Positions 3,907 to 51,900 of a stretch of DNA of 64,000 nucleotides are shown one piece after another. The DNA comes from Candidatus Saccharimonadales bacterium. Its GTDB lineage: Bacteria > Patescibacteriota > Saccharimonadia > UBA4664 > SCTI01. The notes beneath the pieces were generated by a model. That model made no database searches. It was not told where the DNA came from and saw nothing but the letters and a program-made list of their open reading frames with translations. The translations under genes and the position numbers were made by a program. How positions within the stretch are numbered: the stretch's first letter is position 1; each line of letters opens with the position of its first letter. The stretch lies in contig DATIII010000004.1 of NCBI GenBank assembly GCA_035479795.1, positions 15,668 through 79,667 on the forward strand, in the 5' to 3' direction.

Positions 3907-4308
3907 ATGGCTGTATCTGATACCGCAAAGGGGATGGGGCGGTGGAGTATAAATACTAAGGCAATTCGCCAGCATCCGATGATGAGCGATCGGATTTCGG
4001 TGCCCGTTCTCGGCGCGGCCGTAGTTTTGAATATTTGTAATCTTTTAGTTCTAATCTTTCGGGTACATCGAGCAACCTATCCGGTGCCGGTGCACTACTC
4101 CAGTCTAGTTGGCTTCGATCAGGTAGGGAGTTGGCTGGCTATCTGGCGAATTGGTCTATTTGCGCTGGCCGTCACTCTCATCAATGGTGTATTGGCGGCC
4201 AAGGCCTTCCAGCGTAATCGGCTGGCCAGCTTCTTTCTGCTGCTCGGCAGTGTTGTCGTCGGCTTGCTTTGCCTTATTATCACCTCAGCCTTTGCGGTTA
4301 TTGTCTAA
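3907..4308 (+). CDS. Integral membrane protein, hypothetical
   Basis: 133 aa, multiple TM helices; stop overlaps the start of the downstream GT2 gene (TAATG). Confidence 0.55.
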   Translation: MAVSDTAKGMGRWSINTKAIRQHPMMSDRISVPVLGAAVVLNICNLLVLIFRVHRATYPVPVHYSSLVGFDQVGSWLAIWRIGLFALAVTLINGVLAAKAFQRNRLASFFLLLGSVVVGLLCLIITSAFAVIV

Positions 4309-15372: not shown

Positions 15373-16548
15373 TTAAGCCGGCTGGTAGAACATTAGCCCG
15401 AGCTTGATTTGCAGGGCGTCGTCAAACACTCGTGGGTCAAGCCCAATGACTTTCTTGGTCTTATCTAATCTGTAAATTAAGGTGTTGCGGTGGACATGGA
15501 GTTTCTCAGCGGCTTCCGTTAGATTTAGCCCAGCCTGCAGGAATGTCTGAACGGTCTTATATAACTGCTCATCTTTTAACAAAGGATAGAGAATCTGGTG
15601 GGCCAGCTCGGCTTTGCGCTCCTGGGCCACATTGGCCAGGGTCACAAACATGCCGACTTGCTTGATGTGATAAACCCGGCCGGTGCCCCACACCTTGGTG
15701 CCGACCGTCAGGCTGAGCTTGGCTTCCTGAAAGCTCTTGCGCAGGCCACCGAGCTCGGGATAATACTGGCCGACACCGACAGAAACCTTTTTATTTGGGA
15801 ACCGCTTGGCTAGTAAATCGTGCTCATAATGACCCTTTTCAATCATGAAACGCATGGTGTTGCGTAGGGTTAGACCCTCGCCGCCGATGCCTTTGGAGAG
15901 CACGAAGATGTTGTTGCCGATGTAGCAGGCCAGATTGCCAGTGTGATTGTTAAAGCTGGCCTGAATCGCGTTGGTAATCTCGCTGGCGGCTCGAGCTACT
16001 TCCTGCTCCTGTTCGTCCGGTGTGAGCGGGGCGTGTTCGAGCCGAATGTCTTGTTCGAAGCGCTCGATTTCAATCAAGATAATGGCTTGCGGCTGGCGCA
16101 GGTTGATCTGCAGGATGTCGGCCTGACGGTAAGCCTCGGCCGCTTCAATTTTGGTGGAGGTCAGTACTTGTTTGATAAAGTTGGCCCGGATTTTTTCTGA
16201 TGGCTGGACGTGCTCGAGTAGGAAATGTTGGTGGGTAATAACCTCGGCTAGGCCTTGGAGCAGGCTGATGGCTTCGGGGGTGGTATGGGCACCTTCTTCC
16301 ACCACACCAAAGGCACCAACGGTTTGGTTTTCATACACAAACGGGCACCAGGCCACTGAAGCGTCACCCAAGCCAGTGCGAACCACCCGTCCCTCCTGGC
16401 AGGCCCTAAGGGCATCAACCAGGATCTGCCCATTATAGTTGCCTTGGGAAAGCACCAAGCCCTTGGCGTCGGCCACTAGCACACTGCGCTTCAATACGGT
16501 TTTGGCGCGCTCGGTGATTTGACCGGCGACGGCAGGATTTAATCGCAT
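15373..16548 (-). CDS. CdaR/PucR-family transcriptional regulator
   Basis: C-terminal HTH LHVHRNTLIYRLDKTKKVIGLDPRVFDDALQIKLGLMF typical of PucR/CdaR C-terminal domains. Confidence 0.75.
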   Translation of the reverse strand: MRLNPAVAGQITERAKTVLKRSVLVADAKGLVLSQGNYNGQILVDALRACQEGRVVRTGLGDASVAWCPFVYENQTVGAFGVVEEGAHTTPEAISLLQGLAEVITHQHFLLEHVQPSEKIRANFIKQVLTSTKIEAAEAYRQADILQINLRQPQAIILIEIERFEQDIRLEHAPLTPDEQEQEVARAASEITNAIQASFNNHTGNLACYIGNNIFVLSKGIGGEGLTLRNTMRFMIEKGHYEHDLLAKRFPNKKVSVGVGQYYPELGGLRKSFQEAKLSLTVGTKVWGTGRVYHIKQVGMFVTLANVAQERKAELAHQILYPLLKDEQLYKTVQTFLQAGLNLTEAAEKLHVHRNTLIYRLDKTKKVIGLDPRVFDDALQIKLGLMFYQPA

Positions 16549-16552
16549 AGCG

Positions 16553-16637
16553 GCTCCGGGATGCGGGATACGGGATGCAGAATACAGAAATAACTATGAG
16601 CTTCTCCGAATCCTGAATCCTGAATCCTGAATCCTGT
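16553..16637. repeat. Inverted arrays of tandem heptamers (CGGGATR x3-4 ... GAATCCT x4) immediately upstream of the regulator start
   Basis: ccgggatgcgggatacgggatgcagaatacag ... ccgaatcctgaatcctgaatcctgaatcctg. Confidence 0.8.
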
Positions 16638-16639
16638 TC

Positions 16640-17758
16640 TCACGATTGTTCCACAAACTTAGTAAATAGAATGGCTAGTTTTATCTGCACCGCATCATCA
16701 AAGCTACGCGGGTCCAGATTAAGTGTTTCGGCTATGCGGTCCAGTCGATATACCAGGGTGTTGCGGTGAATCCCCAGTTCGTCGGCCGTCTGCGTCAGAC
16801 CCATGTTGTTTTTAAAGAAGCTCTCAAGCGTTTGAATCACGCCGTCGTTTTCGCCCAGCTTCTCGAGCAGCTCGCGGGAAAAGTAGATGTTGCTTTCATC
16901 AATACCAGATAGCAAGGGAGCCACCACACCAAAGTCGTCGATGTGATACACCCGGTCTTTATCCCAGTTTTGCGCGCCCAGCTCGATGGCCGAAATAGCC
17001 TCGGAGTAGCTAGTGCGCAGGCCGTCCACCCCGGGGTGGTAGTTGCCAATACCGACAGTGGTGGGGCTTTTGAGCTCACCTCGGAAGATTTGGTAGATGG
17101 TGTGGATTGATTTTTTGAACCGGTCCAGTGATTCTTCCAGCGAAGTTTCGCCGCCATTTAGGTCCTTTAAAATGCAGAAGGCATTATTGCCAAGGTAGGC
17201 GATAATGTTTGATTTACTCGAGGTGTAATAAGAGTTCAAGCCGCGGCTAATGCCGAATTTGTAGCGCGTGATGCGCATTTCGCGGTCGCCTTCGTCGCGG
17301 GTCTCGCCGGTTAATACCGGATCGTCGACGGTTACTACAATGGCAATGCGCGGCACGCTCAGGTCGATGTCGAACAGCCGAGCCTCGGCGGTGATCAGTC
17401 GATCGTCGGTGGAGTGCCCGGCCAATAGGTCGTATACAAATTTATCCAGCCGTTCTTCCTGGTGGGGGAGCTGCTCAATCAGGATGGTTTGGTGCAGCAG
17501 TAGCTCGGCTATTGATCGAATCAGCGGGGCGATTTCTTCATGATTCGGCATCTGCCGGCTGAGTAAGACATAGCCCGTGGGCTTGGCGCTGTGCTGGACC
17601 ACGATGGCCCATGGATAATTGCTAATATCCAGGCTCTCCTGGACGTTGGGATCGTTTGTGGATAAAACAGTCCCCTCGGTGTCTACCACCGAAAGTGGCT
17701 GATTAACCAGGGCGCCGACCTTATCTTGGATGCGCTCCGCGATATGCTGGTTTAGCAC
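16640..17758 (-). CDS. CdaR/PucR-family transcriptional regulator (paralog)
   Basis: C-terminal HTH LGIHRNTLVYRLDRIAETLNLDPRSFDDAVQIKLAILF. Confidence 0.75.
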   Translation of the reverse strand: MLNQHIAERIQDKVGALVNQPLSVVDTEGTVLSTNDPNVQESLDISNYPWAIVVQHSAKPTGYVLLSRQMPNHEEIAPLIRSIAELLLHQTILIEQLPHQEERLDKFVYDLLAGHSTDDRLITAEARLFDIDLSVPRIAIVVTVDDPVLTGETRDEGDREMRITRYKFGISRGLNSYYTSSKSNIIAYLGNNAFCILKDLNGGETSLEESLDRFKKSIHTIYQIFRGELKSPTTVGIGNYHPGVDGLRTSYSEAISAIELGAQNWDKDRVYHIDDFGVVAPLLSGIDESNIYFSRELLEKLGENDGVIQTLESFFKNNMGLTQTADELGIHRNTLVYRLDRIAETLNLDPRSFDDAVQIKLAILFTKFVEQS

Positions 17759-29493: not shown

Positions 29494-29523
29494 TGGATCC
29501 CGAATACTCAATCCTGTATCCTG
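29494..29523. repeat. Short AATCC/ATCCT heptamer-like array
   Basis: GGATCCCGAATACTCAATCCTGTATCCTG. Confidence 0.5.
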
Positions 29524-29821
29524 TAACTAGCTCTGCATGTTGTGGTAGTCCGGTATATTTTTTTCTGTATGACTTTTTACCTCGGGAGCTCGAGATTGTC
29601 CTTGGCCTTGGCCAAGGAACTGAGAGCACCCACCTAGCTTAGGACGGGAAGAAGTTGTCCGGATACCCAACAGCGGAGATTTTTTTGTTAAAGCCTCAAT
29701 CTCGGCTCATTTCAGCGTTAACCTTGCGTCTTCGTCCTCACCGTACTAATGTGTACGTCTCGGTTGAAGTACTCGGTTTGCCTTGAAATGCGCTCGAGCT
29801 AGAGGCTTTAATGTAAAAGAA

Positions 29822-33477: not shown

Positions 33478-34932
33478 TTGAGAAAAAGAAGCGAGTTAAT
33501 ATTTAGCCTACTGCAGCTGCCAATTGATTTCGTGGCAATTTTGACAGCCTTTGTGGCGGCCTACGCCCTGCGCGTGAAGATTGATGCCCGTCCGGTAGCT
33601 CATCCGCTGGGCTTTATGTTCTTTTTGAAGATTTTCCTGCTGATCATCCCGGTTTGGGTCATACTTTTCGCCCTGAGCGGATTGTACAACCTTTCGAGTC
33701 TACGGGGTCGGCTTAAGGAAATTAGTCGAGTATTTGTGGCCGTTTCGGCCGGAGTCATGTTTATGATTGTGGTCGATTTTCTTTCCAAAGATCCGTTATT
33801 CCCTTCAAAGTCGGTACCGATTTACGCCTATGGCTTGAGCTTAATAACCGTAATCGCGGCGAGAGAGATTATGAGGGCTGTGCAACGCAGCTTGTTTCGT
33901 AAGGGCATTGGGGTTTATCAGGCGGTTTTGATTGGCAGCGGGCCCATTGCTCAGAAGATCGCCGAATCACTCAAATCGGCTAGACACTCGGGCTATAAGA
34001 TCATCGGGGTTATCGATAGTGCCAGGGGGGCTCAGAAGCGAATGACGCCTTTGCGAGTCGATAGTAATTTTCAAAACCTGCTTAACCGACTCAAAAACAA
34101 ACAGATTGATGAGTTTATTCAAGCCGACTCATCGCTAGAGCCCGATGAGGTTTATGAAGTGGTGGAGTATGCCGCCAACCATCATCTTACCTACCGATTT
34201 GTGCCTAATCAGCTTGGTATTTTCGCCACACATTCCGAGGTGGGTACGATGGCGGGTATGCCCATGATCGGCATAAAGCCAACTCCGCTAGACGGATGGG
34301 GGAGGATTGTGAAACGACTGTTCGATATGACAGCTTCACTTTTAGGCTTGCTGGTTCTGTCACCATTTTTCTTGGTCATTGCCGTTATTATTCGAGTTAC
34401 CGATCCCGGGCCAGTGTTATTCAAGCATCGTCGATTGAGTCGAGTGGGCAAGGAGATTTATGTGTATAAGTTTCGCACGATGAAGGTCAGGTTCTCGAAA
34501 GGCGAGTTTGCCGGCAAATCGGATATTCAAGTTTTTCAGATACTGGGTCGTGACAACTTGGTAGAGGAGTTTAAGCGCGACCAAAAGGTACGGCGTGATC
34601 CAAGAGTCAGTAAAATAGGGGACCTTCTCCGCCGCTCGAGCTTGGATGAGCTACCGCAGCTTTGGAATATTTTCAAAGGTGATATTAGCCTGGTGGGGCC
34701 GCGACCGGTCGTCCAGGCAGAGCTGGAAAAATACGGCAGTGGGCGATCGACACTGCTATCCTTAAAGCCCGGCCTAACTGGTTTGTGGCAGGTTTCCGGT
34801 CGCAACGACGTGAGTTATGAGGAAAGGGTCAAGCTAGACCTGTTCTATATTGAAAATTGGAGTCTGTGGCTGGATATTCGGATTATCCTGCGTACACTCT
34901 TGATTCTGGTGACGCGCCGAGGAGCTTACTAG
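33478..34932 (+). CDS. Polyprenyl-phosphate sugar phosphotransferase (WbaP/CpsE family)
   Basis: N-terminal TM helices and C-terminal bacterial sugar-transferase domain with DELPQLWNIFKGDISLVGPRP. Confidence 0.8.
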   Translation: MRKRSELIFSLLQLPIDFVAILTAFVAAYALRVKIDARPVAHPLGFMFFLKIFLLIIPVWVILFALSGLYNLSSLRGRLKEISRVFVAVSAGVMFMIVVDFLSKDPLFPSKSVPIYAYGLSLITVIAAREIMRAVQRSLFRKGIGVYQAVLIGSGPIAQKIAESLKSARHSGYKIIGVIDSARGAQKRMTPLRVDSNFQNLLNRLKNKQIDEFIQADSSLEPDEVYEVVEYAANHHLTYRFVPNQLGIFATHSEVGTMAGMPMIGIKPTPLDGWGRIVKRLFDMTASLLGLLVLSPFFLVIAVIIRVTDPGPVLFKHRRLSRVGKEIYVYKFRTMKVRFSKGEFAGKSDIQVFQILGRDNLVEEFKRDQKVRRDPRVSKIGDLLRRSSLDELPQLWNIFKGDISLVGPRPVVQAELEKYGSGRSTLLSLKPGLTGLWQVSGRNDVSYEERVKLDLFYIENWSLWLDIRIILRTLLILVTRRGAY

Positions 34933-35017
34933 TGCCAGGATTCAGGATTCAGGATTCAGGGTTCAGGATTTTCAAGCTTCTCCTAAATTCTAAACTCCAC
35001 ACTCTAAACCCTGGCAC
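34924..35017. repeat. Inverted heptamer arrays (CAGGATT x5 ... degenerate TAAAYTC) upstream of the GT4 gene
   Basis: GTGCCAGGATTCAGGATTCAGGATTCAGGGTTCAGGATTTTC ... CTCCTAAATTCTAAACTCCACACTCTAAACCCTGGCAC, with flanking 8-bp inverted ends GTGCCAGG/CCTGGCAC. Confidence 0.75.
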
Positions 35018-35023
35018 TACCCT

Positions 35024-37356: not shown

Positions 37357-37390
37357 CAATCTGGTCAATAAGTCGGGATTCAGTATTTAG
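37357..37390. repeat. Single-copy palindromic GGATTC...GAATCC motif upstream of infC
   Basis: GGGATTCAGTATTTAGAATCCAGAATGCAGG. Confidence 0.45.
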
Positions 37391-37411
37391 AATCCAGAAT
37401 GCAGGAGAAAA

Positions 37412-41890: not shown

Positions 41891-41919
41891 TTGACTTACG
41901 CATTTATGTAGGGTAATAT
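41891..41919 (+). promoter_or_regulatory. Near-consensus sigma70 promoter
   Basis: TTGACT (41891-96), 17-nt spacer, TAATAT (41914-19). Confidence 0.55.
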
Positions 41920-41925
41920 TGTCCT

Positions 41926-42413
41926 GTTCTTCGGCGCCCGCAGGGACGTGCCGAGGACTGTACCGACAGCAACCAAGGAGAGTCATGTCATGGTCACGCA
42001 CTAGCGTGAAGACCCATGACGCTCCGTCGGAGCCGGCCTCGGGTTAGAGTCCGCTTCGGCGGGCGTCAAAAACTTCTTTCCGGCGGGCAACTTGACGCCC
42101 GCCCGTCCGGATCGAAGACAAGTACCAGGTCTGGCAGTCGACAGCCATTGACCTGAAAACATGGGATAGAGCCGAGGGCGTTGATCCGTCCAGCGGGGAT
42201 CGTCCTCGGCCTACTCCTGACAGACTTCAGTCCCAGCCGTTAAAACTTCGGACCATGGATGGTCCGCTCGTGGTGATCCGCCATCCCTGGATCACACGCA
42301 TGGCGCCGGGCCCGGGCACACAACTCAACCGCTTTCATCGGGCGGTGCGAGGTGCTCGGGCCGCGGCCCAACCCCAGTTTTCGAATCCCGAAAGCTGGGG
42401 ATTCTTTTTTTTA
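41926..42413 (+). ncRNA. Candidate structured noncoding RNA of unknown class (about 490 nt, GC-rich)
   Basis: Bounded by the promoter above and a 12-bp-stem terminator (CCCCAGTTTTCG-aatcc-CGAAAGCTGGGG + T9 at 42372-42413). No M-started ORF of 60 aa or more in any frame. Contains an AAGGAG-led 20-codon ORF and strong alternative hairpins. Confidence 0.4.
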
Positions 42414-42466
42414 GGCTTTCGAATTAAGAATTAGGCTTTCAGCTTTAAGCTTTGGGCTTTCGTCCT
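42405..42466. repeat. GGCTTTC heptamer repeat cluster
   Basis: AGGCTTTCgaattaagaattAGGCTTTCAGCTTTAAGCTTTGGGCTTTCG. Confidence 0.6.
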
Positions 42467-43719
42467 GCCGCGGCGTAGCCTTTTAGAACATTCTCATATA
42501 AATGCTCGAGCTCGTGGGCTTGGTGATCTACCGAGTATTTTGCCGCCAGCTTGATACTGGCCTTGCCCATGGCTTTACGCTTGTCATTATCTTCTAAAAT
42601 CAGGCCAATCTTTTTAGCGAAGTCGCGAGCCGAATTACGAGCAATGTAGCCATTAACTCCATTCTTCACTATTTCGGTAATTTCTTTATCAATCATCACA
42701 ATCGGCAGGCCAGCCGAAGCCGCCTCGTGGATCACCAGACCCTGAGTATCAGTGCGAGAAGGGAAGGCAAATACGTCGGCGCTGGCGTAGGCGGCACCTA
42801 GGCGTTCATGGCTGACATAGCCGGTAAATATAACTCGGTCAGCAATGCCGAGCTCATGTGCCATGGCAGCTAGCTTGCCTTGATGCTCGTGTCGGCCGAC
42901 TAGCAGTACAACCAAATCGGAGTTGGTATGAGCTAGAATGGCGGCTGCCGACAAAAGTAGTTCAATATTCTTTTCACTGCCCAGGCGGCCTGCAAACATT
43001 ACTACTTGATGATGAGGTTTAATGCCAAAACGCTTCTTAAAACTGATGACTCCCTGGTGGGATGTTGTGATTTCATCTACACCAGTCGGCAAAATTCGGA
43101 TTGGTGCCTTAGTGCCCCAGGATTTGAGTTGGCGTTCAATTTTGCGCGATGGGGCAATGATGCGATCACATTGGTTGTGCAGCATAGTGACGCCGCGGAC
43201 GACCATTTTCTTATTCCATTTATCAATATTGCGCTCGGGTTTAATACTGGATATGGCCGATCGTAGGTCGCCAATGCCGCCGCGCGTAATAAAGGGTGCG
43301 AGGATGGATAGGGCAATGGTGCCCGGCAGTACCTGTGGGTAGTGTGAAACATATTCATAAAGATCGGTATGGTAGGTGGCCATGAGCGGTACATTGTTGC
43401 GCAGGGCAAAGTAGGCACCGAGCAGCCCGATCTGGCTCGGTGTATGGAAGTGAATTACATCCAGCTTCTTATTTTTAATCATCTGCAGGGCCTGAGGGGG
43501 GAAGAAGATACTGGTCAGATAGTCGTCGTAGAACAGTCCCTTGACGGCCGGGAAACGGATAATGTTTTTGGTGCGCTCCTTGTAACGGATGCTGGGAGCT
43601 GGTGCGAAGACAAACACCTCGTGTCCCATAGACTCTAGCGCCACTCGGAAAGATTCTATGGAATAGGAAATTCCGTCGAGAGACGGAAGGTAGGAATCGC
43701 TAAACAAGCCGATACGCAT
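42445..43719 (-). CDS. Family-4 (GT-B) glycosyltransferase, possibly glycolipid synthase
   Basis: E-x7-E motif FPSRTDTQGLVIHEAASAGLPIV. Confidence 0.7.
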   Translation of the reverse strand: MRIGLFSDSYLPSLDGISYSIESFRVALESMGHEVFVFAPAPSIRYKERTKNIIRFPAVKGLFYDDYLTSIFFPPQALQMIKNKKLDVIHFHTPSQIGLLGAYFALRNNVPLMATYHTDLYEYVSHYPQVLPGTIALSILAPFITRGGIGDLRSAISSIKPERNIDKWNKKMVVRGVTMLHNQCDRIIAPSRKIERQLKSWGTKAPIRILPTGVDEITTSHQGVISFKKRFGIKPHHQVVMFAGRLGSEKNIELLLSAAAILAHTNSDLVVLLVGRHEHQGKLAAMAHELGIADRVIFTGYVSHERLGAAYASADVFAFPSRTDTQGLVIHEAASAGLPIVMIDKEITEIVKNGVNGYIARNSARDFAKKIGLILEDNDKRKAMGKASIKLAAKYSVDHQAHELEHLYENVLKGYAAAGRKPKA

Positions 43720-43722
43720 ACT

Positions 43723-43832
43723 CGAAGGATACAGGATTGAGGATACAGGATCCAGAATATGGAGATCGATAAGTCCTTAGCGAAGCCTAAAACGTGTGCT
43801 GTATCCCGAATCCCGAATCCTGTATTCTGTTG
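43723..43832. repeat. Inverted heptamer arrays (GGATWCA x4 ... TGWATCC x4) in a divergent promoter region
   Basis: AAGGATACAGGATTGAGGATACAGGATCCAGAATATGG ... GCTGTATCCCGAATCCCGAATCCTGTATTCTG. Confidence 0.8.
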
Positions 43833-43834
43833 GT

Positions 43835-44848
43835 ATGCATAAGCGTTTGCGGGTGAATGTGGTTTCCGAATCGGCCTTTACGGTGCAAGGCCACGGCGTG
43901 CATACGGCTTTTGAAGAGACGGTGCGGATGCTGCAGTGGGCAAAGAATATGACTGTGGCCTCTAATTCCAACCTGCCAGCCGATATCGTGCACATCCATA
44001 CGGTTGGCGTCTACTCATTATGGAAGTTACTTTTCAGCCGAGGTCGCAAAGTTATATCGGCGCATGTTACGCCGGATTCGTTTGTGGGCAGCCTGGTGGG
44101 TGCTCGCACTTGGTACCCATTGGCTCGTTGGTACCTACGGTGGTTCTATAATCGGGCCGACGGAGTTTTGGCTGTCAGCCACGAAGTTCAAGATGAGCTG
44201 AAGGAGTTAGGCATTACCAAGCCGGTTTATCTAATGCCCAACACCATTGATGTTAGGCCATATAAATCGACTCCGGCTATCAAAAAGGCGGCGCGTAAGC
44301 ATTTGGGCATTGGCGAATCCGAGTTTGTAGTAATCTGTTGTGGCCAAGTCCAGCCCCGCAAGCGGGTTGATACATTTATTCAATGCGCTCGCGATCTGCC
44401 TGATGTTAAGTTCGTTTGGGTTGGCGGAGTGCCCTTTAAGCGAGTAGCTGCCGATTACGGCCATATGAAGCATCTAATGGCCGATCATCCGGTAAATGTT
44501 ACCTTCACCGGAGTGATTAGCCATGCCGACGTGGTGGCCTATTATCAGGCGGCTGATCTCTTCTTTTTACCGTCTGTCCAGGAAACCTTCGGTATCGTCG
44601 TTATCGAAGCAGTGGCGGCGGGGTTGCCGGTACTCTTGCGTGACATCGACCAGTACGAGAAGACCTTCAAGGGCTGGTATTTGAAGGGCGATGAACGTAG
44701 CTTCACCGGGATCATTCATCATTTACAGCATGATAAGAAAGCCTATGCCACGGCCGTGAAGCAGTCGGCACCCATAGCCGAAGAGTACAGCAGTGAACGT
44801 GGGCGCCAGCTGTTGCTTGATATCTACACCCAAGTTTTGCAGCGCTAA
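43835..44848 (+). CDS. Family-4 (GT-B) glycosyltransferase
   Basis: E-x7-E motif FFLPSVQETFGIVVIEAVAAGLPVLL. ORF opens at 43796 inside the repeat array; ATG 43835 preferred. Confidence 0.7.
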   Translation: MHKRLRVNVVSESAFTVQGHGVHTAFEETVRMLQWAKNMTVASNSNLPADIVHIHTVGVYSLWKLLFSRGRKVISAHVTPDSFVGSLVGARTWYPLARWYLRWFYNRADGVLAVSHEVQDELKELGITKPVYLMPNTIDVRPYKSTPAIKKAARKHLGIGESEFVVICCGQVQPRKRVDTFIQCARDLPDVKFVWVGGVPFKRVAADYGHMKHLMADHPVNVTFTGVISHADVVAYYQAADLFFLPSVQETFGIVVIEAVAAGLPVLLRDIDQYEKTFKGWYLKGDERSFTGIIHHLQHDKKAYATAVKQSAPIAEEYSSERGRQLLLDIYTQVLQR

Positions 44849-51761: not shown

Positions 51762-51769
51762 TGCTTATA

Positions 51770-51890
51770 GAATATAGGATTCAGGATTCAGGATCCAGGA
51801 AAGAAGTGGCCAATCTAAGGAGACAGGATCTCGCATTGAGGATCAAAAGAGGGAATTTAAATCCTAGATCCTAAATCCTAGATCCTGTAA
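51770..51890. repeat. Inverted heptamer arrays (GGATTCA x3 ... AATCCTAGATCCT x2) in a divergent promoter region
   Basis: GAATATAGGATTCAGGATTCAGGATCCAGG ... GACAGGATCTCGCATTGAGGATC ... TTAAATCCTAGATCCTAAATCCTAGATCCTG. Confidence 0.8.
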
Positions 51891-51900
51891 TGTTTCTAGT

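Follow-up and report, generated by a model that had tools for sequence, protein, structure and literature searches.

An inverted pair of heptamer arrays between two PucR/CdaR-family genes of a Saccharimonadales bacterium as a probable copy of a dispersed, lineage-specific element family

We analysed a 64,000-nt stretch of DNA (hereafter the window) from a Candidatus Saccharimonadales bacterium (assembly GCA_035479795.1, contig DATIII010000004.1, positions 15,668 to 79,667), focusing on a 91-nt gap at window positions 16549-16639, which we refer to as site A. The gap separates two co-directional minus-strand paralogs of the PucR/CdaR family, both of which carry GGDEF_2 and HTH_30 domains (Pfam), and it is occupied by two heptamer arrays that are inverted relative to each other via their GGAT/ATCC cores. 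The features, in the order in which they are met on the minus strand, are as follows, with the evidence for each in brackets (ORF, open reading frame; TRF, Tandem Repeats Finder).

16640..17758, minus strand: upstream PucR/CdaR-family regulator gene, 372 aa (ORF list, the assembly's own gene calls, Pfam HTH_30 at 7e-19 and GGDEF_2 at 1e-13)
16608..16635, minus strand: G-rich arm of four perfect AGGATTC heptads, GAATCCT on the plus strand (sequence reading, TRF)
16578..16607, minus strand: spacer, GGAGAAGCTCATAGTTA followed by two decayed heptads, TTTCTGT ATTCTGC (direct reading)
16557..16577, minus strand: C-rich arm CATCCCG TATCCCG CATCCCG, with GGAT cores on the plus strand, core 16577-16557 (sequence reading, TRF)
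16549..16557, minus strand: Shine-Dalgarno (SD) sequence GGAG (16557-16554), then 5-nt CCGCT to the ATG (sequence reading)
15373..16548, minus strand: downstream PucR/CdaR-family regulator gene, 391 aa, ATG at 16548-16546 (ORF list, Pfam, gene calls, orthologs)

Along the minus strand the junction reads TGA (16642-16640), GAAC, four copies of AGGATTC (16635-16608), GGAGAAGCTCATAGTTA, TTTCTGT ATTCTGC, ATCCCGT ATCCCGC ATCCCGG, AGCCGCT and ATG (16548-16546). The G-rich arm begins 4 nt past the TGA and the C-rich arm finishes 8 nt ahead of the ATG. TRF reported GAATCCT in 4.1 copies with 100% identity (16608-16636) and CGGGATG in 3.1 copies with 86% identity (16557-16578). A first-pass annotation, made from the letters of this DNA, had described four GAATCCT copies, a 22-nt spacer and a CATCCCG/TATCCCG array ending 8 nt before the start codon. 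The four copies and the 8-nt distance are as described, and the 22-nt spacer is correct if the decayed units are counted with the proximal array, which period 14 stretches to 16585; the good units alone leave a spacer of 29-30 nt. The annotation was also right that the proximal array reaches the ribosome-binding site, as GGAG overlaps the last C-arm unit 5 nt ahead of the ATG, and this array therefore lies in the leader of the downstream gene. It had placed the arrays upstream of the first regulator. They do adjoin a PucR/CdaR start codon, but by transcription order that gene is the second of the pair and the stop codon of the first is just upstream. Since the arrays follow the first regulator and precede the second, the region is intercistronic and not an upstream promoter region.

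Matches to the site A pattern were far more frequent in the window than expected from shuffled sequences. The triple heptad GGATN3GGATN3GGAT had 10 matches (0.01 expected) and the double heptad GGATN3GGAT had 21 (2.2 expected). At site A the matches are at 16559-16576 on the plus strand and 16610-16634 on the minus strand, convergent and 33 nt apart. Of the intergenic gaps that measure 40 nt or more (42 in all), three had strong lag-7 periodicity, two contained further arrays (read at 43720 and 29491) and two had decayed traces. Four sibling elements, B to E, were identified.

34930..35023 (gap 34933-35023), plus strand: element D, between a sugar transferase gene and a GT1 gene on the same strand
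43720..43834: element B, between divergent GT4 genes
51762..51900: element C, between divergent PilB-like ATPase and LCP genes
29496..29525, plus strand: element E, a lone C-rich array (ATCCCGA ATACTCA ATCCTGT ATCCTGT) right after an M50 peptidase gene's stop codon

Element B consists of AGGATAC AGGATTG AGGATAC AGGATCC AGAATAT, a 41-nt spacer and ATCCCGA ATCCCGA ATCCTGT ATTCTGT, and element C of AGGATTC AGGATTC AGGATCC AGGAAAG, a spacer and ATCCTAG ATCCTAA ATCCTAG ATCCTGT. Element D, a decayed 91-nt palindrome, reads TAGTGCC, three copies of AGGATTC, AGGGTTC AGGATTT, a centre of AAGCTT, a decayed C-rich arm and GGCACTA. Aligned with one another, the window elements have one layout: 4-14 nt separate an ORF boundary from about four AGGATNC units, an unrelated spacer leads on to about four ATCCYGN units, and after 4-15 nt comes another ORF boundary. 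On the sense strand the C-rich version stands before every start codon and the G-rich version follows every stop codon. The family element is thus an array of about four G-rich, C-poor heptads (RGGATNC here), a spacer of 20-60 nt and a reversed C-rich array, and the G-rich arm is read first on either strand. Site A and element D have in common the 9-mer GGAGAAGCT, at the inner edge of an arm and in mirror position (GGAGAAGCT/AGCTTCTCC). The five array loci adjoin PucR, GT, PilB, LCP and M50 genes, among which there is no functional theme. A regulatory role specific to CdaR, as the first-pass annotation had implied, is not supported by these observations: the same architecture flanks unrelated genes at four other gaps, and the orthologous loci in relatives have no arrays (see below).

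The symmetry of two of the siblings extends beyond their arms. In element D (34930-34939 / 35014-35020) it takes in the upstream stop codon TAG, and in element B it reaches both start codons (GCATAC...GTATGC, 43716-43722 / 43832-43838). Judged from these sequences, the outward palindromy looks as if the flanks had been extended by hairpin-templated copying. Two further runs were seen in the window: heptamer arrays of another unit type (GGCTTTC/AGCTTTA) at 42410-42461, overlapping the 3' end of the GT4 gene at 42445-43719, and a decayed run, GGGATTC AGTATTT AGAATCC AGAATGC, at 37365-37400.

We compared site A with the orthologous junctions of related genomes. The tandem PucR pair is kept in these relatives and the junction between the two genes differs. 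The genes overlap as ATGA in the relative with 91% protein identity (L123), as TGATG in another with 72% (L127), and by 4 nt in two with 70% (L219 and L220). The overlapping stop and start codons in these four relatives indicate that the gene pair was ancestrally one operon, and their gap-free junctions that the element at site A is a recent, lineage-specific and derived insertion. From this comparison of sequences, we infer that the gain took place precisely at the point where the TGA of the first PucR/CdaR gene met the ATG of the second. Other relatives (L124, 86%; L125/L126, 83%) have an insert of about 135 nt at this junction that is unrelated to site A and mutually homologous (L124 1561-1699, L125 2368-2500, and L126); the gene calls of L124 treat it as an ORF of 48 aa that overlaps its neighbour on either side as ATGA. 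The PucR-PucR junction appears, on its sequences, to be a recurrent insertion site in Saccharimonadales. The downstream PucR gene opens ATG CGA TTA AAT CCT GCC, and codons 2-6 (16531-16545, minus strand) hold AAATCCTGCC, a heptad-like ATCCTGN unit. Given its position beside the insertion point, AAATCCTGCC is a possible candidate for microhomology used in the insertion.

No triple heptads were found in 90.9 kb of sequence from relatives, compared with the 10 matches in the 64-kb window, and the gaps orthologous to elements B and C in two relatives (L341 and L342) consist of ordinary DNA with no arrays. The presence of the family in a reduced genome of the Candidate Phyla Radiation (CPR) and its absence from relatives argue for episodic bursts. 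A distinction between growth in situ and replacement by a whole element at B and C was attempted and dropped: no alignment was obtained between the window spacers and intergenic DNA of the relatives, but the relatives do not align with one another there either, which makes the spacer comparison uninformative.

The first-pass annotation had proposed that repeat number changes promoter geometry and leader structure. The promoter part is not supported: the gap is set between same-strand paralogs of an ancestral operon, and a consensus scan found no sigma-70-like promoter inside 16549-16639, although the consensus may not fit this phylum. The broader proposal would make site A a phase-variable contingency locus, in which slippage alters the number of heptads and thereby promoter spacing or leader structure, tuning or switching the downstream CdaR regulator. 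There is a precedent in Haemophilus influenzae, the one heptamer SSR (simple sequence repeat) whose mechanism has been dissected, where the (ATCTTTC)n repeat of hmw1A forms one arm of a hairpin in the 5' untranslated region (5'-UTR) that RNase III cuts (Rapun-Araiz et al. 2025, PMC12721329), and at site A a perfect four-unit SSR adjoins the ribosome-binding site. An independent assembly of the same organism (L002) breaks off inside the AGGATTC array, as assemblies often do at repeats. However, the proximal array and spacer in this assembly are identical to those of site A, and three assemblies derived from two runs show no difference at element D, so that no repeat-number polymorphism was seen in the parts that can be compared, although a comparison of assemblies has low power. 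Scanning metagenome contigs, a collection from which this organism is absent, with the end of the upstream gene as anchor matched nothing and gave no population variants of the junction. Moreover, at 3-5 units the arrays are short in comparison with hmw (at least 11), no promoter-like site was found in this intercistronic region, the siblings flank housekeeping and envelope genes in no pattern, and phase variation was considered unlikely for heptameric SSRs of this kind in Xanthomonas (Rehm et al. 2015, PMC4692102). We consider phase variation at site A improbable.

The RNA of the coding strand at site A is predicted to fold as an imperfect hairpin of GGAU:AUCC blocks with a free energy of about -27 to -33.5 kcal/mol (z about -2.3). 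The arm units differ (TCA versus GCG/ACG), and the arms are therefore only about 5/7 complementary. This fold is weaker than those of element B (-47 kcal/mol) and element C (-43 kcal/mol). The corresponding values are -46.8 / -42.6 kcal/mol for B (z -5.3 / -4.0), about -43 kcal/mol for C (z -3.1 / -4.5) and -27.8 kcal/mol for D (z -2.3). An intrinsic-terminator scan found no terminator-like site inside 16549-16639, where the C-rich arm is followed by GGAGCCGCUAUG with no U-tract, and promoter (sigma-70) and terminator scans at A, B and C found nothing within the elements. No Rfam family matched at the gathering threshold across the whole window, and the locus at E <=10 gave only look-alikes of miRNA-precursor hairpins (E >=0.1).

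The architecture is not confined to this genome. We scanned one genome per species for three GGAT heptads, 36-66 nt and three ATCC heptads, which returned at least 120 stretches from more than 10 phyla (chance expectation estimated at about 0.1). Taxa among the matches listed include Acidobacteriota (with many Pyrinomonadaceae), Planctomycetota, Gemmatimonadota, Bacteroidota, Chloroflexota, Xanthomonadales, Burkholderiales, Nitrospirota and Verrucomicrobiota, among others. An AGGATTC-specific scan of metagenomes likewise returned at least 120 stretches. Among the matches listed from these two scans, convergent pairs outnumbered true divergent pairs by 135 to 0 (genomes) and 133 to 1 (metagenomes), the modal arm had four units (127/270 and 133/264, respectively), and the median distance from an array to the stop codon was 9 nt and 6 nt. 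By crude ORF calls, the flanking genes of the listed matches were tandem in 59 genomic and 58 metagenomic cases, divergent in 25 and 26, and convergent in 20 and 12. The two arms of a listed locus mostly carry a matching unit (GGATGAG/CTCATCC, GGATTGC/GCAATCC, GGATTCG/CGAATCC).

Equal scans for each core, period and arrangement were run on a viral collection, with the following results.

GGAT core, period 7, convergent: 30 stretches
GGAT core, period 7, divergent: 1 stretch
GGAT core, period 6: 0 stretches
GGAT core, period 8: 6 stretches
GGTA core, period 7, convergent: 4 stretches
GAGT core, period 7, convergent: 46 stretches
GAGT core, period 7, divergent: 0 stretches

Pooled over the GGAT and GAGT cores, convergent pairs outnumbered divergent pairs by 76 to 1. 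We had considered GGAT as a universal core and rejected it, as the GAGT control gave more stretches (46 versus 30, with 4 for GGTA); GGAT is thus not a unique core. The GAGT-core family on viral contigs (L163-L208) includes GAGTGGC/GCCACTC, GAGTTGA/TCAACTC and GAGTGAG/CTCACTC, with the same polarity. The general object is therefore a pair of G-rich, C-poor heptamer arrays in which the G-rich arm is 5' on either strand.

Across the listed loci the arms paired with each other in 110/129 predicted folds, with a median free energy of -52.5 kcal/mol (z about -9.5), and the spacers folded better than shuffled sequences in 21/129. In several loci (L100, L003, L119, L110 and others) the spacer is itself a perfect hairpin or an intrinsic terminator with a T-run, canonical in L100 and L003, and the heptad arms lengthen the terminator stem. 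These properties bear on the possibility that the element is a bidirectional hairpin terminator or a 3'-end stabiliser, similar to REP (repetitive extragenic palindromic) sequences and BIMEs (bacterial interspersed mosaic elements), in which the arrays lengthen the stem. The stability of the class hairpins, the terminator-like spacers of L100 and L003, array starts at a median of 6-9 nt past stop codons among the matches listed, and the transcription of the repeats in Xanthomonas (PMC4692102) all agree with such a role. Site A, by contrast, has a weak stem and neither a U-tract nor a terminator call, and a terminator there would shut off the second paralog of what was ancestrally one operon. 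About one quarter of the listed elements (25/104 in genomes and 26/96 in metagenomes), as well as B and C, are located between divergent genes, and just the 21 spacers noted above fold better than shuffles. We regard this function as unlikely.

Another possibility is that the arrays are operators for a putative heptad-reading protein whose regulon would comprise the CdaR, exopolysaccharide, pilus and LCP genes. The omega repressor of plasmid pSM19035, a ribbon-helix-helix protein, reads contiguous 7-bp heptads with a defined WATCACW unit at plasmid promoters, and prefers heptads that are arranged directly or convergently to those that diverge. The heptads described here are also contiguous and show a strong orientation preference, and they abut the start codons of divergent genes. 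Furthermore, the variable triplets are 75% identical between arms, with no strict mirror order, which would fit recognition better than rigid pairing. Strict arm palindromy was itself tried and rejected, as mirroring in the order of variant units is only weak for GGAT (0.724 versus 0.676) and absent for GAGT. However, units vary within this one genome (TCA, ACA, TGA, GCG, CTA) and widely between genomes, the GAGT and GGTA cores build the same architecture, and positions after stop codons and between convergent genes carry elements as often as promoters do. Protein operators do not have a G-rich/C-poor strand rule, we identified no candidate binder, and relatives with the same genes have no arrays. 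An operator function therefore has, in our estimate, about the same small likelihood as phase variation.

The preference for four units equals the count of G-tracts that a G-quadruplex (G4) requires, and a G4 or i-motif that modulates transcription or translation has been proposed for the GGGAATC and GGGGATT repeats; Xanthomonas and Nostoc units, the latter GGGGA(C/T)T, form G4 in vitro (PMC4692102). We rejected this explanation for site A on unit composition. AGGATTC and the units of most loci (GGATGAG, GGATTGC, GGATTTC, GAGTGGC) carry GG only and would give a weak two-tetrad G4 at best, and the complementary arm competes for pairing. The four-unit mode persists in these GG-only units, which weakens the G4 rationale further. 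A G4 function is the least probable of the explanations considered here, and G4-forming capacity is not the common denominator of the class.

An all-versus-all BLAST of 166 spacers found five similar pairs, each inside one genome, which shows that whole elements are occasionally duplicated. The shared spacers (L039 at 5130 and 7480, and L111 at 6072; L082 at 2305 and 2783; L151 at 5290 and 5670) are similar over 30-40 nt at 87-97% identity and are sometimes in opposite orientation.

Taken together, we estimate a probability of roughly 0.6 that site A belongs, as a single copy, to a dispersed and lineage-specific family of inverted heptamer arrays, and not a promoter or operator dedicated to CdaR. 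The two PucR/CdaR genes are presumably still co-transcribed, in which case the element would act, if at all, in RNA as an intercistronic spacer. Its insertion would have abolished the ancestral, presumed translational coupling, and the downstream gene would now start from a new GGAG SD sequence at the edge of the C-rich arm. By analogy with the action of RNase III on the heptamer-armed hmw1A hairpin, the stem-loop at site A could be a processing or stability site. The family as a whole is most likely selfish or near-neutral DNA, subject to strong structural constraints and with side effects that are local. Slippage and hairpin-templated copying may build its arms and homogenise them, and an insertion would persist only if it left ORFs intact and had the G-arm-first polarity. 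We suggest as a candidate reason for this polarity that, with the C-rich arm at the 5' side, a Rho loading site would be exposed until the other arm had been made.

Several points weigh against this interpretation. Co-transcription, folding in vivo and any processing at site A are steps that we infer, and the site A hairpin is weak (z about -2.3, with arms about 5/7 complementary). Elements B and C are located between divergent genes, where one RNA with both arms is unlikely, and thus an RNA hairpin is not the common role of the family. A purely neutral model does not explain the G-arm-first polarity, the period of 7 or the four-unit mode. No target-site duplication or conserved core was found, and spacers are mostly unique (five similar pairs among 166). 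Finally, gain rather than precise loss is deduced from four gap-free junctions of six distinct ones sampled, and not from a full phylogeny.

A more far-reaching version, which we think has a low probability but somewhat more than any of the functional alternatives above, is that the convergent heptad-array element is a pan-bacterial portable module with a strict, sequence-independent grammar, read by conserved machinery and spreading by hairpin-templated copying with no dedicated transposase. If so, the grammar would be a G-rich arm 5' on both strands, period 7 and about four units, flush against ORF ends. Its readers could be RNase III or the degradosome, Rho or RNA polymerase, or a structure-specific DNA enzyme, and the module could drop into a zero-length ATGA junction and split an operon, as in this minimal CPR genome.

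The outer ends of the arrays at B and C have a further property. Outermost, partly decayed heptads provide TAnnnT hexamers (TATTCT, TATCCT, TATTCT and TAATGT; loci 43823-43834, 43720-43731, 51762-51774 and 51886-51900), which are 6-7 nt before the starts of all four array-flanked divergent genes (both strands of B and of C). The sequences are suggestive of array ends that may have been co-opted as candidate -10 elements for leaderless mRNAs at B and C; this would be inapplicable to site A, which has an SD sequence. An SD core is upstream of just one of the six array-flanked start codons examined, that of the downstream PucR gene at site A. Across the window, 36 of the 64 ORFs have an SD core near any of the first six candidate starts, and many genes with no SD have TATAAT or TATCAT 6-8 nt before the start (at 3907, 23188, 32415, 44864, 53864 and others), a signature of leaderless mRNAs.

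Apart from the arrays, the window contains an ORF-free stretch of about 516 nt (41900-42415, plus strand), flanked on one side by a TrmB-like gene and on the other by a GT4 gene's end. Its predicted fold has a free energy of -249.6 kcal/mol (z -7.35, equalled by 0/100 shuffles) and ends in a canonical terminator, CCCCAGUUUUCGAAUCCCGAAAGCUGGGG followed by U8, and it had no Rfam match at the gathering threshold or at E <=1. On the strength of this predicted fold, we consider it a candidate large structured non-coding RNA of this Saccharimonadales genome.

Our results mean that it would be wrong to annotate the site A arrays as a CdaR control region, since no such conserved region is present, and for the gene itself the finding matters little. 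The interest is less in site A itself than in the clean gain event and the rules of the class. The contrast between an ATGA overlap in relatives and a 91-nt element here is a clean before-and-after case, pointing to elements that arrive as units and create intergenic DNA in operons. The architectural rules hold over more than 10 phyla, metagenomes and phage contigs, and in quantified form (a polarity of 76 to 1, period 7 over 6 or 8, and 6-9 nt from stop codons) they must be explained by any mechanism. An excess of heptameric SSRs in bacteria was noted in 1990 and again in 2007 (the latter as cited in PMC4692102); our literature searches on heptameric SSRs, GGGAATC and short tandemly repeated repetitive (STRR) sequences found no paper explaining the function of the class. 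Together, these findings make the question of the class experimentally approachable.

Comparison with known systems places the element among several kinds of repeat. Like REP/BIME sequences and MITEs (miniature inverted-repeat transposable elements), it is short, dispersed, intergenic and hairpin-forming, has a lineage-specific abundance and can be inserted inside operons. In contrast to these, its arms are tandem SSRs, and the copies share no conserved unit sequence or core and have no terminal inverted repeat accompanied by a target-site duplication. Inspection of the site A junction revealed no target-site duplication, and the spacers are unrelated except for the 9-mer of A and D. A MITE or REP assignment was rejected, as the junction gave only a 7/9 direct repeat, GGAGAAGCT/GGAGCCGCT, which is explained by chance, in addition to that 9-mer. 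The omega operators differ in that the units here vary and the sites are not confined to promoters.

The hmw1A leader resembles site A in having a heptamer SSR as one arm of a long imperfect leader hairpin upstream of a gene, with a G-rich partner; the post-transcriptional effect is that of hmw1A. Its polarity is opposite, with the pyrimidine arm 5' and the G-rich arm 3', and the repeat has 11 or more units. Copy-number phase variation is documented for hmw1A, which is a single dedicated locus with a promoter of its own; at site A none of these features was seen. The TAACTGA direct repeats of Beggiatoaceae, Cyanobacteria and Bacteroidetes and the STRR heptanucleotides of cyanobacteria (MacGregor 2015, PMC4679880) are also genome-wide intergenic heptamer arrays with a patchy phylogeny, often a few nucleotides from start codons where few canonical ribosome-binding sites occur. 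They are mostly single direct arrays (in the genome of the Guaymas Maribeggiatoa, one of 170 sets is inverted), have other units and lack convergent pairing.

The closest counterpart is in Xanthomonas, whose convergent heptameric SSR pairs match the architecture described here. Rehm et al. (2015, PMC4692102) found 183-186 GGGAATC/(GGGANTN)n SSRs per genome, with a preference for four units and 70-75 convergent pairs per genome. These SSRs are 89-93% intergenic and within 50 bp of ORFs, their G-rich strand is coding after stop codons and non-coding before start codons, their flanking genes have no functional theme, they change rapidly between species, and their function was not established. The window elements likewise consist of head-to-tail heptamers of at least two copies with about four preferred (4.1 perfect and 3.1 at site A), in two nearby convergent arrays, one per strand. 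They are intergenic and less than 50 bp from an ORF, with the same positional rule for the G-rich strand at site A, and are dispersed in many copies with no flanking theme (five loci in the 64-kb window). The unit itself is not GGGANTN or GGGGAYT with a G3-4 tract: the distal arm, AGGATTC, has GG only, and the proximal arm (GGGATGC/GGGATAC) contains just three G3 tracts and lacks a T at position 6. The host here is a CPR bacterium of roughly the 1-Mb class, compared with large high-GC genomes, elements between divergent genes are not depleted (24-27% among the listed loci, versus 7-8% in Xanthomonas), and the arms in this window, unlike those of the Xanthomonas pairs, are only partly complementary. 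What the two have in common is a C-poor unit containing G-G-A..T, of which the length and sequence shift fast between relatives.

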